Counted from the first letter of the stretch, positions 8,132 to 13,184 are shown. The stretch is DNA of 32,000 nt from Geotalea uraniireducens Rf4 (GCF_000016745.1 NC_009483.1:540001-572000); one strand, 5' to 3'. The notes: generated by a model from the letters alone, not told the origin. Translations and numbers: made by a program.

Positions 8132-9832
8132 ATGAACCGGAGCAAAGCGCTGTTCAGAACATTATTTCCGTCTTTACTGTTGGGTCTTTCGCTGCTCCAG
8201 GGTTGCGCGTCTATGGAGCCGGCAACCGGAAAGCAGGCGACGGCGTCGGCCAGCATATGCAACCAGGCCAACAGCGCCGTAATCGACTATTTCGGCCTCA
8301 TCGACAGCGCAAAAAAGGAACGACCCGAACTCGTTGAAGCCCTGGCGAAATTCCCCAAGGGTGCCGACCTCCATAACCACCTTTCGGGAACGGTTATGCC
8401 GGAAGACTATATTGCACTGGGGAGCGCAGAAGGCGACTGCTTCGGACCGGACACGAGCGTCCCGACCATGTATGCCATCACGACTGCCGCTGCATCCGGT
8501 GCATGCAATGCCGGTTTCAAGCCGCTGGCGAAGGCGAGCGCCGATGAGCGGCAAAAGCTGGTGCAGTCCCTGTCCATGTACCAGTTCGACTATCAAGGGA
8601 TCCAGTCCGGACACGATCAGTTCTTTGCGACCTTCGGCAGATTCGGAGCGGTATCCGGCTCATTCAGCAACGAGGGGCCGATGCTTGCGAAACTTCTGCA
8701 ACAGGCGAATGCGGACAATGTCATCTACGTCGAAACCATGATGTCCTTCCAGCCAGCGGCGGTCAGCCGCCTTGCCGACCTGCTGAGACAGAGATATCCC
8801 GACGCCTCGTATTACACGGAAAGCAGCAATTATCCCGCGCTGTTCGACTATTTGCTGAGTGCCGGATTGAAAAACGCCGTGATCGCGGCGCAGAAGGATA
8901 TCGCCGCATACGTGAGCAGTACGAATGCCGTACTCAGGTGCGGCGCTGCCGACCAGGACCCTGCCTGCGATGTTTCCTACGACTTTCAAGCTGCCGTGAA
9001 CCGGAATGCTTCAATGAAAGACGGGAGCGCCGACCTGCCGAAAATTTTCACGCAGACAGCCATCTCCTGTCTGCTCGCCGATGCTGAAAAACGGGTGGTG
9101 GGAGTGAACCTGCTGAGCGGCGAAGACCAGCCCGTCTCCATGCAAAGCTTCAGCACGCAGATGCAGTTTTTCAGCTATTTCCATGGCAGGTTTCCGAAGG
9201 TGAACATTGCTCTCCATGGGGGCGAAATCACGCCGTGTTTCGTTGGTGACGGTAATCCGGCGCTGAAGGACCATCTCACCGGTTCCATACGTGCGGGCGC
9301 GAAGCGGTTGGGTCATGCAGTTTCCTTCAGCTATTTGAACGATGTCGACAAGGCCGAAGTCGCCGCAGTGATGAAGAGCAATAACACCCTTGTGGAAATT
9401 CCGTTCACCAGCAATGCGCAGATACTGGGGGTCGCCGGCGAGGAACATCCGTTTCCGCAGTATTTTCGCAAGTATGGCATTCCCGCCGCTTTTTCGACGG
9501 ACGACGAGGGGGTTTCCCATGCCGACTACACGAGCGAATGGATCTACGCTGTCATGAAATACGGAATAACCTTCTCTGAAGCGGTACGGCTGGCGCGTTT
9601 CAGCATCCAGTACAGCTTCCTGCCCGGCGACCCGCTCTGGACGGACGTGGCGTCGGCAAAAATAGTCAGCCAGTGTGCTGGCCAGGCTCCGGGGAGCTCC
9701 GATCCCGCCGAACCATGCAGGGCCTTCCTTGCGGGCAGCGCGAAAGCCAGGACCCAATGGAGCTACGAAGCGAAGCTTTCCCGTTTTGACAACGAATACG
9801 GACCAAAGCTGAGGAAGTATCTCGGGAATTGA
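8132..9832 (+). CDS. Adenosine/AMP-deaminase-family metallohydrolase, predicted lipoprotein
   Basis: The ORF is 566 aa, with a GGAG SD at 8122-8125. The signal peptide has the lipobox LSLLQGC. The metal-binding motif is ADLHNHLSGT (HxH), and the C-terminal STDDEGVSH resembles the (S/N)TDDP deaminase signature. Confidence 0.8.
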   Translation: MNRSKALFRTLFPSLLLGLSLLQGCASMEPATGKQATASASICNQANSAVIDYFGLIDSAKKERPELVEALAKFPKGADLHNHLSGTVMPEDYIALGSAEGDCFGPDTSVPTMYAITTAAASGACNAGFKPLAKASADERQKLVQSLSMYQFDYQGIQSGHDQFFATFGRFGAVSGSFSNEGPMLAKLLQQANADNVIYVETMMSFQPAAVSRLADLLRQRYPDASYYTESSNYPALFDYLLSAGLKNAVIAAQKDIAAYVSSTNAVLRCGAADQDPACDVSYDFQAAVNRNASMKDGSADLPKIFTQTAISCLLADAEKRVVGVNLLSGEDQPVSMQSFSTQMQFFSYFHGRFPKVNIALHGGEITPCFVGDGNPALKDHLTGSIRAGAKRLGHAVSFSYLNDVDKAEVAAVMKSNNTLVEIPFTSNAQILGVAGEEHPFPQYFRKYGIPAAFSTDDEGVSHADYTSEWIYAVMKYGITFSEAVRLARFSIQYSFLPGDPLWTDVASAKIVSQCAGQAPGSSDPAEPCRAFLAGSAKARTQWSYEAKLSRFDNEYGPKLRKYLGN

Positions 9833-9992
9833 GACACGGGCGAATTCAGGGTCAAAGTGCACCACTACGTGCTTGCGTGGCTGACGAGATGTTGTTGATT
9901 TGGGTTCAATCGTATTTAAACTGAAAGTCCAGAAAACATAAATTTAACCCTCTTTCAGCGTTGTCCGTTAGGTCTTTGCATTAAGTTTTTTA

Positions 9993-10143
9993 GCCCCATT
10001 AGGGGTGTTCGCATGTAGCCGGGGGATTCATCCCCCGGAACAGATCCCAGAATATCCCCACGTCACGTACGTGACGTGATGAAATTTGCCGCAATGACCG
10101 GGGAATGAATTCCCCGGCTACCAGCATTCTGTCCCTACGGGAC
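9993..10143. repeat. Cluster of five GC-stem hairpins/palindromes, including a perfect 20-bp palindrome flanked by inverted hairpin copies
   Basis: The elements are CCCCATTAGGGG (about 9995-10006), CCGGGGGA-TTCA-TCCCCCGG (10019-10038), CACGTCACGTACGTGACGTG (10059-10078), CCGGGGAAT-GA-ATTCCCCGG (10098-10117) and GTCCC-TAC-GGGAC (10131-10143). Segments 10015-10038 and 10098-10121 are inverted copies of each other. Confidence 0.7.
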
Positions 10144-10237
10144 GTAAGCAAAAACCGGACACTGCTGACCATCTTTCCTTTTTCCCCAGGCAGTCATTCT
10201 GCCCCTGTGCCGACTTGCGCCCATCACCGAAAAATAC

Positions 10238-10265
10238 TTGCAAAAAGCAAATAATTTTGTATAGT
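10238..10265 (+). promoter_or_regulatory. Candidate sigma-70 promoter of the marR-hgcAB unit: TTGCAA (10238-10243), 16-nt spacer, TATAGT (10260-10265); small palindrome TTGC-AAAAA-GCAA overlaps the -35
   Basis: Hexamers and spacing were read from the sequence. The site is 20 nt upstream of the ATG at 10285, with a GGAGGA SD at 10274-10279. Confidence 0.45.
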
Positions 10266-10284
10266 GTCTGTATGGAGGATTGAG

Positions 10285-10752
10285 ATGGATTCCGTACGAG
10301 AGCAATTGCAAATATTTGTGCGCCGGTTCGGGCTCCTGAACGCCACCTGTTGCGAGGCCTGCTGCGGCGAGGATGTATCGCTTGTGCAGAGCCACATCCT
10401 CTTCGAGATACGGCGCATGGGGGAACCGTCGATGCAGCAGGTGGCGGAGGAGCTGGGGATTGACGTCACCACCTTCAGCCGCCAGGTCAAGGCCATGGAA
10501 GGGGACGGGCTGGTGACGCGCCGCCCGTCGGAGAGGGATCGCCGGGTGAGCCTGCTTGGGCTGACCGACGAGGGACGGCGAGTGCTGGTCCGGATCGATC
10601 GCTACATGGCGGAGAAGATCGGCCAGATCTTTTCGGTGATGACCCCTTTCGAACGGGAGGTTACAACCCGTTCGCTGGCTCTCTTCAACGAGGCGCTGGC
10701 CAAGGTCGGTGAGGCTGCTTCCGATGGAAAAAACATTGCATGCTGCAACTAA
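10285..10752 (+). CDS. MarR-family winged-helix transcriptional regulator with vicinal cysteine pairs
   Basis: ORF 10264-10752 was trimmed to the ATG at 10285. The MarR-like core is SLVQSHILFEIRR...MQQVAEELGIDVTTFSRQVKAMEGDGLVTRRPSERDRRVSLLGLTDEGR. It carries CCEACC at 10348-10365 and a C-terminal ...IACCN (CC at 10741-10746). Confidence 0.88.
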   Translation: MDSVREQLQIFVRRFGLLNATCCEACCGEDVSLVQSHILFEIRRMGEPSMQQVAEELGIDVTTFSRQVKAMEGDGLVTRRPSERDRRVSLLGLTDEGRRVLVRIDRYMAEKIGQIFSVMTPFEREVTTRSLALFNEALAKVGEAASDGKNIACCN

Positions 10753-10768
10753 TATTGGGGCGGGTGAG

Positions 10769-10942
10769 ATGATGAAAGTTCAGAAAACGGGGAAGGTCGA
10801 GTGGTCGAATGTAAAGCTGGCGACGCCTGCCGGCTGCGGTCCCGCTGCCGGTAACGGGCTGGAGAAGCCCCCCTGCTGAGGCCCCCGCATCTCCGCCGGC
10901 GGCGGAGCGATTGATGAAACGGTTCCCGGCTTCCTGGGGTGG
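10769..10942 (+). other. Open, coding-like extension of the hgcA frame, interrupted by a single in-frame TGA (10877-10879). It is either a Sec-containing N-terminal extension of HgcA or a separate 36-codon leader ORF
   Basis: The ATGATG at 10769 is in the same frame as hgcA (both coordinates equal 2 mod 3). It lies 16 nt after the marR stop and has a GGGGCGGGTGAG SD-like run. Translation gives MMKVQKTGKVEWSNVKLATPAGCGPAAGNGLEKPPC-TGA-GPRISAGGGAIDETVPGFLGWL, then TTDAGRF... Third codon positions are strongly G/C on both sides of the TGA. Confidence 0.45.
10891..10907 (+). promoter_or_regulatory. SECIS-like hairpin candidate downstream of the in-frame UGA
   Basis: The stem is CUCCGCC-GGC-GGCGGAG, 7 bp and perfect, with a G-containing apical loop. 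It starts 11 nt after the UGA at 10877-10879. Confidence 0.35.
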
Positions 10943-11929
10943 TTGACGACCGATGCGGGGCGGTTCCCGCAGGTGGCGTCGGAGCTTGCCTGGACAGACC
11001 GGCTCGGCGGATGGAAGGCGCGTTGGGGGATCGGCCGCATGAGCTACCTGATTCCCGCCGGTCTCTACGCCGTAGGCCAGCCGACCCCGGCCGATCCCGT
11101 TGTGGTGACGGCCAATTACAAGATGAGCTACGATCTGGTGCGGCGCTCACTGGCCGGCCGCAACGTCTGGCTGCTGGTGCTGGAGACTTTCGGCATTAAC
11201 GTCTGGTGTGCGGCGGGGAAGGGAACCTTCGGCACGGACGAGCTGGTACGGCGCATCGGCGCGACCGGACTGGCGCAGGTGGTAACCCATCGGCGCCTGC
11301 TCCTGCCGATTCTGGGTGCGCCCGGCGTGGCTGCCCACGAGGTGGCCGGGCTGACCGGTTTTACGGTCAGATACGCGACGATCCGGGCCGACGACCTGCC
11401 GGCCTATCTGGACAACGGCATGGTGACGACTCCGGCGATGCGGGAACTGACCTTTACCTTTCGGGAGCGGCTCGTGCTTATCCCGGTGGAACTGGTGCTG
11501 GCACTGAAGCCGACGGCCGCTGTCTGTGCGGTAATCTTCCTGTTGGCAGCCCTGCTCGGGGGTGTTCCTGCCGGGCTCTGGACCCTTTTGGCCTATGCCG
11601 GCGCGGTCTTTACCGGCATAGCGGTTGCGCCGCTTCTCCTTCCATGGCTTCCGGTGCGAAGCTTTGCCGTCAAGGGCGCGCTGGCAGGTCTTGCCTGGAG
11701 CACGGGCTACTATCTGCTCGCTGGCGGCGGCAGCTGGAGTGTGCCGGTGGCGATTGCAGCATTTCTGACCCTGCCGGCGGTGAGCGCCTTCTACACCCTC
11801 AATTTCACGGGGTGCACCACGTTTACCTCCCGTTCCGGCGTGAAGAAGGAAATGCGGCTCGCCCTGCCGGTCATGGGGGGCGCCCTTGCCGTCAGTGCAC
11901 TGTTGCTGGTGGCGGGGTTGTTTCTGTAG
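10943..11929 (+). CDS. hgcA: Mercury-methylation corrinoid protein HgcA (minimal extent as tracked; the true start may be 10769 with UGA read-through)
   Basis: The diagnostic cap-helix motif NVWCAAGK is at 11198-11221, in GINVWCAAGKGTFGTDELVRR. The C-terminal half is multi-pass transmembrane. An HgcB-type ferredoxin gene follows directly. The tracked start at 10943 is a TTG with weak initiation context. Confidence 0.92.
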   Translation: MTTDAGRFPQVASELAWTDRLGGWKARWGIGRMSYLIPAGLYAVGQPTPADPVVVTANYKMSYDLVRRSLAGRNVWLLVLETFGINVWCAAGKGTFGTDELVRRIGATGLAQVVTHRRLLLPILGAPGVAAHEVAGLTGFTVRYATIRADDLPAYLDNGMVTTPAMRELTFTFRERLVLIPVELVLALKPTAAVCAVIFLLAALLGGVPAGLWTLLAYAGAVFTGIAVAPLLLPWLPVRSFAVKGALAGLAWSTGYYLLAGGGSWSVPVAIAAFLTLPAVSAFYTLNFTGCTTFTSRSGVKKEMRLALPVMGGALAVSALLLVAGLFL

Positions 11930-11946
11930 CGGAACGGGGAGGCATA

Positions 11947-12237
11947 ATGAAAGACTTCAGATATTTGCGAAACGTGGCGACGCTGGAACTGCGTGAGTCC
12001 GCCTGCATCGGCTGCGGCAGGTGCGTGGAGGTCTGCCCGCACAAGGTATTCTCCCTTGCGGAAAAGCGGTCCCGCATCGTCGACTTCGATGGCTGCATGG
12101 AGTGCGGCGCCTGCGCGAAGAACTGTCCGACCGCTGCCATAAAGGTAGATGCCGGGGTCGGCTGCGCCTCGGGGCTGATCACTGAATGGCTCCGGGAGCG
12201 GAACATCCGCGGGGTCGGCGGCGGGTGTTGTTCTTAG
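11947..12237 (+). CDS. hgcB: Mercury-methylation 2[4Fe-4S] ferredoxin HgcB
   Basis: The ATG at 11947 has a GGGGAGG SD and lies 17 nt after the hgcA stop. The protein is 96 aa, with CIGCGRCVEVCP and CMECGACAKNCP motifs and a C-terminal vicinal pair GGGCCS (CC at 12226-12231). The tracked 343-aa ORF 11206-12237 is an out-of-frame over-extension across hgcA. Confidence 0.92.
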   Translation: MKDFRYLRNVATLELRESACIGCGRCVEVCPHKVFSLAEKRSRIVDFDGCMECGACAKNCPTAAIKVDAGVGCASGLITEWLRERNIRGVGGGCCS

Positions 12238-12249
12238 CCGACAGGGCCT

Positions 12250-12834
12250 TCAGGAGGGCTCGACGCGCATGCGCGGCGCCGGAAACTTTCTGCCGACGAT
12301 GGCCTTGTGCCGGGCGCGCAACTCCTCCATTCCCCCTTCCAGAAAAGAGAGTGTTCTCTTGTCTTCCAGTTCGTTCAGATAGGCATCAGCCAGCGTTGCC
12401 ATGAGGGCGTTGTACTTTTGGGTTGAACTGCCGTGGGCGTAGTTTCTGCCGGGGAAGCGGCGGATGTCGCCGTTGAATTCCGGTGCGACGTGATAGAGTT
12501 CGTGGAGGACGGTTATCAGTTTTTCTTTTAGTGGAAGATTGAGAAAGCGGGGGACGAGGAAATAGATGATGTAGAGGATCTCGGTGTCGCGGTGGGTGAC
12601 GGGGGGCATGGAACAGATGAAGGTGCGGCGGCCGCGGCGGGCTGTCGTGGTCCGGCTGCCGTCTTTGAAGCGGAGCGGGTGGATCTTGGCGTAAGTGCCG
12701 TGAATGCCGCCGTTGCGGGTGTTTGAGATGCAGACGAGGAGCTGTTGCGGGTCGATGTGGCCGAACTCCGGCATCCGCCGGACGATGTCGGCAATGAGCC
12801 GCTCCAGCTCCCCTGTCAGGTTGAGGGTAGTCAT
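12250..12834 (-). CDS. Hypothetical protein with an HExxH motif (putative zinc metallopeptidase-like)
   Basis: The ORF is 194 aa. HELYH is encoded at 12490-12504 (minus strand). No signal peptide is apparent. It is convergent on hgcB with only a 12-nt gap. Confidence 0.7.
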   Translation of the reverse strand: MTTLNLTGELERLIADIVRRMPEFGHIDPQQLLVCISNTRNGGIHGTYAKIHPLRFKDGSRTTTARRGRRTFICSMPPVTHRDTEILYIIYFLVPRFLNLPLKEKLITVLHELYHVAPEFNGDIRRFPGRNYAHGSSTQKYNALMATLADAYLNELEDKRTLSFLEGGMEELRARHKAIVGRKFPAPRMRVEPS

Positions 12835-12893: not shown

Positions 12894-13184
12894 TTAACCT
12901 TGCGCCTGGAGTTTATGGCAGAACAGGCAGCGCATCGGGCCGTCTTTCGGCTTGACCGGATGTTTCGGCGGGAAGGGGATCCCCCCCTGCTCATTGTGGC
13001 AGGCGGGACAGCCTTTGTCCGCCTCCATCTTGCTGCCGGTCTGTTTTACGATTTCGTAAAAAGGTTTATGCTTGTCGTCGAGGGGGACCCGTTTGGTCTT
13101 TTCTTTGCCGGAAATGGCAATAAAAATAACCAGTACCACACCGATTATGGCGATAAATATCCAGTCGTTTTTGCTGATTTTCAT
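12894..13184 (-). CDS. Small membrane-anchored diheme c-type cytochrome
   Basis: The ORF is 96 aa. The N-terminal anchor is WIFIAIIGVVLVIFIAI, and there are two CXXCH motifs (CPACH, CLFCH). A GGAGGGAAT SD precedes the ATG. Confidence 0.85.
   Translation of the reverse strand: MKISKNDWIFIAIIGVVLVIFIAISGKEKTKRVPLDDKHKPFYEIVKQTGSKMEADKGCPACHNEQGGIPFPPKHPVKPKDGPMRCLFCHKLQAQG

Follow-up and report, generated by a model that had tools for sequence, protein, structure and literature searches.

In Geotalea uraniireducens Rf4, the mercury methylation genes hgcA and hgcB lie directly behind a gene for a cysteine-rich regulator of the MarR family. We examined this arrangement in a stretch of 32,000 nucleotides (GCF_000016745.1, NC_009483.1:540001-572000), referred to here as the window, whose first letter is position 1. 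The host genome is complete, measures 5.14 Mb, and belongs to the family Geobacteraceae. The three genes form one unit on the same strand, consisting of marR (10285-10752), hgcA with an N-terminal extension that contains cysteine and selenocysteine (Cys-Sec; 10769-11929), and hgcB (11947-12237). The marR gene (plus strand) reads from ATG 10285 to TAA 10750-10752, encodes 155 amino acids, and is preceded by a ribosome-binding site, GGAGGA, at 10274-10279; its start was placed at ATG 10285 according to the starts of orthologues, not at GTG 10264 of the open reading frame (ORF) list. The product matches the Pfam models MarR_2 (51.9 bits, cut-off 27) and MarR (51.2 bits, cut-off 24.6). An earlier reading of this sequence, the first-pass annotation, had described a MarR-family protein with a CC-x2-CC motif and a terminal CC, and all of these features are indeed present where it placed them. 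The N-terminal cluster C22-C23-E-A-C26-C27 (10348-10365, plus strand) is encoded within NATCCEACCG and is proposed to sense the metal(loid), and the terminal pair C153-C154 (10741-10746, plus strand) belongs to the tail IACCN. From comparison of the sequences, we consider it probable that a repressor of the arsenic-sensing MarR_ars type heads the marR-hgcA(Sec)-hgcB unit and is released by a trivalent metalloid.

The first-pass annotation had suggested a survey of hgcAB neighborhoods for this regulator. We carried it out at three levels, the family (87 species genomes), the class (a sample of 401 genomes), and a species-wide collection, and the adjacency of marR and hgcA recurs in dozens of species. 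In the family, HgcA was found in 77 genomes and a MarR of the hgcA-linked type in 13; 13 of the 15 MarR copies immediately precede a co-oriented hgcA, with second copies accounting for the remaining two. In the class, HgcA is present in 256 genomes and the MarR in 56, and every MarR-positive genome (56/56) also contains hgcA. About 22% of the sampled hgcA-positive genomes of the class (56/256) place hgcAB behind the MarR. At least 47 of the 60 MarR copies in these genomes adjoin hgcA, while 4 are second copies and 2 lie on broken contigs. The species-wide collection contains 573 relatives of the MarR, and among the best 50 of these 573 (at least 58% identity), hgcA is directly downstream in 48, of which 45 have a detectable hgcB. 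The two exceptions are a second copy and a gene at the end of a contig. These loci belong to Geobacteraceae, Desulfuromonadaceae, and Syntrophobacteraceae metagenome-assembled genomes (MAGs), and among their hosts are cultured relatives of Geobacter, such as Oryzomonas japonica, Pelotalea chapellei, Geobacter argillaceus, and Geobacter sp. OR-1. Genes for Acr3, ArsC, or ArsR flank marR-hgcAB in 10 of the 50 loci, and mer genes do not. The comparative data thus support a tight and specific coupling of the MarR to hgcAB. A MarR-family gene 5' of hgcA has been mentioned in passing for Geobacter daltonii and Dethiobacter (PMC10349881).

Transcription of the unit appears to start from a single promoter. 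Within 9800-12500, the sole predicted sigma-70-like site (10238-10265, plus strand) comprises a -35 element TTGCAA (10238-10243), a 16-nt spacer, and a -10 element TATAGT (10260-10265), and it contains the palindrome TTGC-AAAAA-GCAA. This palindrome at the -35 element is indeed the likely operator of the regulator. The predicted operator O1 (10238-10250; TTGCAAAAAGCAA) matches TTGCA-N3-TGCAA at nine of ten positions and overlaps the -35 element and spacer of the marR promoter. The second predicted operator, O2 (10736-10748; TTGCATGCTGCAA), is a perfect TTGCA-N3-TGCAA palindrome that covers the codons I-A-C-C-N, with 20 nt left between its end and the ATG of hgcA; neither site is assigned to a strand. 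An equivalent of O1, matching at nine or all ten positions, precedes the marR start by 35-57 nt in almost every one of the 50 Desulfuromonadales-type loci, and 29 of 30 Firmicutes-type loci have one as well. Equivalents of O2, with the form TTGCATG[TC]TGCAA, cover the codons [IV]-A-C-C-[NK] in nearly all of the 50 loci, and O1 and O2 occur together in most of the 30 Firmicutes-type loci. The palindrome is specific to the linked arrangement, since in the same family it occurs 5' of hgcA in 10 of 10 marR-linked loci vs 0 of 20 loci that lack marR.

The reported layout of the unit, with marR, hgcA, and hgcB on the same strand, gaps of 16 nt to the extended hgcA frame or 190 nt to the tracked start, and no predicted terminator between marR and hgcA, was confirmed. 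A weak terminator-like hairpin is located inside the 3' end of hgcA (11884-11917); this region gives 2 matches vs 2.7 expected in shuffled sequences, which is the level of chance. No internal sigma-70 promoter for hgcA was predicted at O2 within 9800-12500, and the distances leave no room for such a site; O2 was therefore rejected as an internal hgcA promoter. Therefore, in the hgcA-linked clade O2 is better read as a roadblock or a cooperative site.

The overlap of O2 with the end of marR changes the interpretation of the terminal cysteine pair, whose codons are embedded in the operator and thus dual-coded. The tail IACCN had been presented as evidence for a metal ligand, and this argument does not hold as stated, because its codons constitute the conserved O2 palindrome and the DNA dictates which synonymous codons are used. 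In the 34 tails compared, the codon for Ile, Val, or Leu is NTT in 34/34, the last Cys is TGC in 34/34, the final codon is always AAN, and Ala is encoded by GCA in 31 and by GCG in 3, never by GCC or GCT. The constraint on the final codon accounts for the alternation of Asn and Lys at the C-terminus of the MarR. The palindrome also persists despite differing protein tails, such as IIA, NTL, TKTCC, GCCSL, CCGSSQ, AKCK, ASCK, AYCK, and VNCK. The first Cys codon of the tail falls in the N3 spacer of O2 and yet remains TGT or TGC in about 85% of the loci, while the spacer of O1 is free and A/T-rich. Therefore, some residual selection on the tail appears to act at the protein level. Judged from these codon patterns, the terminal CC is partly dictated by a DNA operator and does not provide clean evidence for a metal ligand. 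That the last five codons of a regulator coincide with its predicted operator is a case of dual coding, and it cautions against taking each conserved cysteine pair for a metal ligand.

The N-terminal cluster shows a different codon pattern. Both TGC and TGT are used at all four Cys positions (TGT in 6-10 of 46), which suggests that selection acts on the protein; the Gly that follows the cluster uses all four of its codons. In a set of 20 diverse homologues, C22, C23, C26, C27, C153, and C154 are invariant. Among the 48 hgcA-linked loci, CCxxCC is present in 44 and a CC[NK] end in 34, and the last 24 residues contain CC in 40 and at least one Cys in 47. The cysteine pairs are thus conserved in hgcAB-linked orthologues, as the hypothesis of a thiol-based regulator had demanded. 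The AF2 (AlphaFold 2) model, calculated for the monomer alone and of low confidence in both cysteine segments, has a canonical MarR fold with six helices and a beta wing (predicted local distance difference test, pLDDT, 80). The cluster is situated in a flexible loop between alpha1 and alpha2 (residues 16-32), and the tail is disordered over its last ten residues. The winged helix-turn-helix (HTH) and the dimerization helices alpha1, alpha5, and alpha6 typical of the MarR family are recognized from Pfam and the model together. No close solved structure was found, the best match being Rv1404 (2nyx) with 37 bits. One hgcA-linked marR orthologue (G248:C1:3416218-3416688, minus strand) carries an in-frame TGA nine codons before VACCK (...SGP-TGA-SGRMVACCK), which may truncate the regulator or, with lower probability, encode Sec. 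We do not claim the latter, as no hairpin resembling a selenocysteine insertion sequence (SECIS) follows this TGA.

The family relationships of the regulator bear on what it may sense. A sister branch of relatives with 39-54% identity is found in Paenibacillus, Bacillus, Cohnella, Brevibacillus, and one Stenotrophomonas plasmid. Relatives at 47-54% identity come from Paenibacillus, Bacillus, Cohnella, Brevibacillus, Ca. Formimonas, and some MAGs, and none of these has hgcAB. Instead, 25 of 30 sister-branch loci hold ars genes, with ArsR, ArsC, and ArsB or Acr3 alongside the regulator. The regulator gene is directly 5' of arsM (NF008823, 365 bits, cut-off 263) or of a gene for an ArsO/ArsV-like flavin monooxygenase, ArsN1, or a Cys-tagged FAD oxidoreductase. 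According to the deposited annotations, it precedes ArsN1 on a Paenibacillus lautus plasmid and forms part of an array oxidoreductase-MarR-ArsR-ArsB-ArsC-ArsD-ArsA on the Stenotrophomonas plasmid. The proteins of this branch have an N-terminal CC (NKNCCSxGG or EQCCxxCCG) and a C-terminal KxGxCC, both of which vary synonymously. Their O1 lies about 50 nt 5' of the start, and O2 lies 15-25 nt past the stop codon, before the downstream gene. In an unrooted maximum-likelihood tree, the ars-linked proteins split from the hgc-linked proteins and their paralogues with a support of 99/96. The tree was built without an outgroup, as no other MarR of the genome reached an E-value of 1e-4, and it therefore gives no direction of transfer between ars and hgc contexts. 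Several unrelated proteins of the ars islands (loci L106-L135) carry short CC-[TSV]-P tags, as in the MarR tail (CCSTPSCG, CCVPPK), at the N-termini of the FAD oxidoreductase (SSCCTPQ) and of ArsM (SCCQTS...SCCSTQ), and in the AhpD-like tail (ACCTPAT). It is possible that the CC-[TSV]-P tags represent a common tag for metalloid handling.

These relatives resemble the MarR_ars subfamily defined by Yu et al. in 2021, whose founder is AdMarR_ars of Achromobacter deleyi As-55 (bioRxiv 10.1101/2021.08.12.456183). In that work, MarR_ars genes were located in ars islands 5' of arsV, arsN, or arsP, with Paenibacillus and Brevibacillus among the named hosts. AdMarR_ars represses arsV and binds the marR and arsV promoters; it is released by As(III) or Sb(III), and Cys36, Cys37, and Cys157 are required (bioRxiv 10.1101/2021.08.12.456183). 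In the ars-island relatives of the window protein, the N-terminal pair and the C-terminal CC are separated by 121 residues, equal to the distance from Cys36 to Cys157 of AdMarR_ars. The window protein has the MarR fold, a vicinal Cys pair near its N-terminus, Cys at the very end of its tail, the first position in its unit, and two predicted binding regions. The N-terminal pair, C22 and C23, is invariant in the hgcA-linked and ars-island relatives alike. Sites at the regulator's own promoter and before the downstream gene, as described for MarR_ars, are seen at the sequence level in both branches. The 39-54% relatives in the ars islands of Paenibacillus, Brevibacillus, and Stenotrophomonas stand 5' of arsV/arsO-like genes, arsN1, or arsM, as in the study of Yu et al.

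The window protein also differs from the described MarR_ars proteins in several respects. Its own gene does not stand in an ars operon and precedes hgcAB; an ars context is seen in the 39-54% relatives and, in part, in the ars genes that flank 10 of 50 marR-hgcAB loci. It has a second N-terminal pair (CCxxCC). The ancestral C-terminal Cys, located 121 residues past the pair in KxGxCC, is retained in the ars-island relatives and in 13 of 48 hgcA-linked proteins, whereas in the window protein it has been lost and replaced by the terminal CC that coincides with O2; most hgcA-linked members likewise have the terminal pair only. Only 16 nt separate the regulator gene from its target, which places O2 inside marR, and the effector of the window protein is predicted from its family context. 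Neither NCBIfam nor Pfam contains a model specific to this subfamily, and assignments to the FabT, BilQ, SlyA, OhrR, and AdcR equivalogs were rejected because all scores are far below the NCBIfam cut-offs. Taking these relationships together, the window protein is most probably a divergent member of MarR_ars.

We propose the following mechanism. In the absence of an effector, a homodimeric repressor would bind the two TTGCA-N3-TGCAA operators. Binding at O1 would occlude the only promoter, covering its -35 element and spacer, and would cause autorepression of the entire unit, and binding at O2, at the junction of marR and hgcA, would provide a second clamp, a roadblock, or a cooperative site. 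The effector would be bound by the thiolates of C22, C23, C26, and C27 together with C153/C154 in the flexible tail, probably that of the partner subunit. The effector-bound repressor would then leave the DNA, allowing hgcAB to be transcribed. The candidate effectors are As(III) or Sb(III), which appear most likely, and possibly methylarsenite. The repressor-operator part of this scheme is well supported by the comparative evidence, from which DNA binding and repression are predicted. The geometry of the binding site and the identity of the effector we infer from sequence relationships. That the regulator is a thiolate-based sensor of a soft metal(loid) controlling the hgcAB operon is, in our assessment, very probable. 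Since the sister branch resides in ars islands and matches MarR_ars, which is released by As(III)/Sb(III), arsenite or antimonite is the better-supported effector. On the strength of this family context and one characterized relative, we lean toward As(III)/Sb(III), perhaps methylarsenite (MAs(III)), rather than Hg(II).

The same genome contains further candidate sites for such a repressor. Perfect TTGCA-N3-TGCAA palindromes occur 12 times in the Rf4 genome vs about 4 expected, and five of them fall in three loci, namely O2 of marR-hgcAB, O1 and O2 of a marR paralogue, and a pair before an operon for a phosphoenolpyruvate (PEP)-mutase-like protein, ArsR, and ArsM. The other seven, which lie in ORFs or beside unrelated genes (htpG, MCP, nuoD), look like chance occurrences and were rejected as members of a regulon. 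The paralogue (genome position 1,619,353; region 1619304-1621100) shares 64% identity with the window protein, carries CCDECCG and IACCN, and is accompanied by an O1 and an O2 of its own. Next comes a small SHOCT-like membrane protein and then, 0.95 kb downstream on the same strand, an AhpD-like CxxC protein with the tail ACCTPATAAKSCC (ACCTPAT..KSCC); ArsA is encoded nearby. In genome G055, the paralogue has the same AhpD-like neighbor together with thioredoxin and CcdA. A small gene after the G055 paralogue was considered as MerB-like and was dropped, as it has no family match. The minus-strand operon at 2829243-2831627 encodes the PEP-mutase-like protein, an ArsR with a C-terminal ECCPGGCK, and ArsM (269 bits, cut-off 263), and two perfect palindromes, 145 bp apart, lie in its promoter region. 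This operon may belong to the same regulon as marR-hgcAB.

A related arrangement has been described outside this lineage. In Pseudodesulfovibrio mercurii ND132, hgcAB is controlled by the co-transcribed, arsenic-responsive ArsR2 (DND132_1054) (Gionfriddo et al., bioRxiv 10.1101/2022.10.17.512643), which responds to S-adenosylhomocysteine (SAH) as well (bioRxiv 10.1101/2022.10.17.512643). As in the window, the gene for a Cys-rich repressor of an arsenic-linked family is co-oriented with hgcAB and directly 5' of it, in the same operon position. However, the folds are unrelated: the window protein scores 22.8 bits against the ArsR/SmtB model NF033788 (cut-off 55), and its best Pfam match is MarR. 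The four cysteines of ArsR2 lie within the domain, in contrast to the loop cluster and tail pair of the window protein, and ArsR2 is found in Desulfovibrionaceae rather than in Geobacterales/Desulfuromonadia. By these sequence criteria, the two regulators are a case of convergent recruitment, functional analogues and not relatives.

Several observations weigh against the proposed assignment. The genomes compared are related, and the counts given above therefore overstate independence. Co-transcription of marR and hgcAB is suggested by the 16-nt gap and the lack of a predicted terminator. Membership in MarR_ars is deduced from the Paenibacillus/Brevibacillus-type relatives and shared features. 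The window protein has no Cys at the ancestral KxGxCC position (near residue 144), and its only C-terminal pair is encoded by O2-constrained codons. The extra pair of the hgcA-linked clade, CCxxCC vs CC in most ars-island members, could change selectivity. In addition, the target genes hgcAB methylate mercury, binding of Hg(II) is also a property of vicinal Cys pairs, and a site with at least four thiolates would suit this ion as well.

These last points lead to the alternative implied by the first-pass annotation, a dedicated sensor of Hg(II) or methylmercury whose Cys pairs chelate mercury and derepress or tune hgcAB according to substrate or product. Its attraction lies in the target genes, in the extra vicinal pair that gives the hgcA-linked clade at least four thiolates, in the similar motifs of the same operon (C-U in HgcA and the terminal CC of HgcB), and in the very tight binding of Hg(II) expected at such sites from general chemistry. 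However, CCxxCC also occurs in Paenibacillus and Bacillus ars-island members that lack hgcAB and is thus not specific to hgcAB. The entire sister branch is associated with arsenic, and As(III)/Sb(III) are the effectors of the characterized MarR_ars. A pair of the same operators is found before the arsM operon of Rf4, and the genes that flank the locus in 10 of 50 relatives are ars and not mer. Moreover, the terminal CC is partly a DNA artifact of O2, and no MerR-type domain was found with Pfam or NCBIfam. MerR sensors of Hg(II) have an N-terminal HTH, a coiled coil, and the triad Cys79/Cys114/Cys123. Both systems would involve sensing of a thiophilic metal by Cys thiolates from both subunits of a dimer and control of mercury-transforming genes. 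The window protein, however, has no MerR-type HTH or coiled coil, no MerR model is among its Pfam and NCBIfam matches, and no mer genes are near its gene; MerR is an activator that distorts its promoter, whereas a protein of the MarR_ars type is a simple repressor that is released. We therefore regard a dedicated mercury sensor as unlikely. The part of the earlier claim that stands is a thiol-based sensor of a soft metal(loid) coupled to hgcAB; nothing points specifically to Hg(II).

A thiol-oxidation sensor of the 2-Cys OhrR kind, in which disulfides between the N- and C-terminal cysteines, formed upon exposure to oxidants, polysulfides, or electrophiles, would release the repressor, seems to us still less likely. 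OhrR of the Xanthomonas campestris type belongs to the MarR family and has a similar layout, with the sensing Cys near the N-terminal helix and its partner near the C-terminus of the other subunit; in the window protein, an N-terminal Cys lies near alpha1 and a second Cys at the C-terminus, both segments are flexible in the AF2 model, and weak OhrR matches were obtained (NCBIfam, 27 bits; PDB 1z91 and 2pex). The presence of the AhpD-like CxxC protein, thioredoxin, and CcdA next to the paralogues would also fit a redox function. However, OhrR senses organic hydroperoxides by disulfide formation, and the score of 27 bits is far below the family cut-off of 200. The neighbors of the hgcA-linked regulator are metal(loid) genes, neither ohr nor other genes for peroxide detoxification, the host organisms are strict anaerobes, and these cysteines mediate the As(III)/Sb(III) response of the characterized relative. 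Of the metal- or redox-responsive control suggested earlier, metal(loid) sensing by thiolates is favored by Cys conservation and kinship with MarR_ars, and the redox reading is less likely. Least probable of all, and in our view very improbable, is a structural or cofactor-holding role of the cysteines (Zn or Fe-S) with a small organic effector such as SAH: a response to SAH was also seen with ArsR2 of ND132, organic ligands are common among MarR proteins, and AdcR and ZitR are Zn-dependent MarRs, but the AdcR match is weak (NCBIfam, 23.6 bits vs a cut-off of 175), vicinal pairs in disordered segments are atypical of structural Zn or Fe-S sites, and mutation of the equivalent cysteines of AdMarR_ars impairs the response to As(III).

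Behind the gene of the proposed metalloid-released repressor lie hgcA and hgcB. The product of hgcA (10769-11929, plus strand, including the N-terminal extension) scores 447 bits with the NCBIfam HgcA model (cut-off 275). The frame opens at ATGATG 10769, 16 nt past the marR stop, in phase with the tracked TTG 10943, 190 nt past the stop, and its sole interruption is the TGA at 10877-10879 within PPC-TGA-GP (10868-10885), read as PPC-U-GP. A SECIS-like hairpin, CTCCGCCGGCGGCGGAG (10891-10907, plus strand), begins 11 nt after the TGA; it is retained in TGA-bearing hgcA orthologues and degraded or lost in Cys-bearing ones. Across orthologues, DKPPC-TGA-GP alternates with PPC-TG[TC]-GP, and hgcA loci of the same family have C-TGA-GP in 26 of 30 and CCGP in 4 of 30. 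The Rf4 genome has two tRNA-Sec genes and SelB. The window gene thus has the selenoprotein form of HgcA, with a CU motif encoded through an in-frame TGA and CC as the alternative in homologues. The Cys-Sec N-terminal extension of HgcA was already described by Haft and co-workers (2022), and the gap between marR and hgcA is only 16 nt because the hgcA frame includes this extension. In the Cys-for-Sec orthologues of loci L056, L057, and L085, longer N-terminal extensions are present between marR and the hgcA core, and they are dense in CC, CxC, and CCG (for example, ...SCCGEA...GCGCAP...DCCATP...PPCCGP). The third gene, hgcB (11947-12237, plus strand), encodes a 2x[4Fe-4S] ferredoxin (NCBIfam HgcB, 129 bits, cut-off 99; Pfam Fer4) with the C-terminus GGGCCS.

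The surroundings of the unit contain several further elements. Just 5' of the marR promoter (about 9992-10150) lies a hairpin-rich repeat of about 160 bp that resembles a miniature inverted-repeat transposable element (MITE) or a repetitive extragenic palindromic (REP) element, with more than 30 genome copies at about 90% identity. On the minus strand 3' of hgcB are genes for a protein with a weak PhageMetallopep match (PF18894; 12250-12834) and a small c7-like cytochrome (12894-13184). Genes for ArsR and Acr3 are located 16 kb upstream of marR in the Rf4 genome.

The regulation of hgcAB and its true role are open questions of mercury biogeochemistry, and transcript abundance is a poor predictor of methylation. 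To our knowledge, the only tested regulator of hgcAB is an ArsR-like protein of one Desulfovibrio relative. Our literature search found no paper linking MarR_ars to hgcAB. Compared with the literature found, the assignment of the hgcAB-linked MarR to an arsenic-sensing subfamily and its extent in the class are new, as are the operator motif and two-site architecture common to Paenibacillus ars islands and Geobacter hgcAB, the overlap of O2 with the last codons of the regulator, and the shared motif at the arsM operon. The likely operator, in two copies, and the likely sensing residues are now defined, which makes the proposal directly testable. A second, unrelated arsenic-sensing family before hgcAB would provide independent support for the proposed link between arsenic and mercury methylation. 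It is possible, although we regard this as speculative and rather doubtful, that the Geobacterales/Desulfuromonadia hgcAB belongs to an As(III)/Sb(III)-inducible regulon, in which a MarR_ars repressor would act through one operator motif on hgcAB, the CC-tailed AhpD-like protein, and the arsM operon, and that HgcAB was selected for metalloid handling. If this is true, hgcAB would have come under the control of arsenic sensors independently in two lineages, this one and the Desulfovibrionaceae with ArsR2. HgcAB would then serve, for example, to methylate As or Sb with the help of a corrinoid or to detoxify them, and mercury methylation would be a side reaction.

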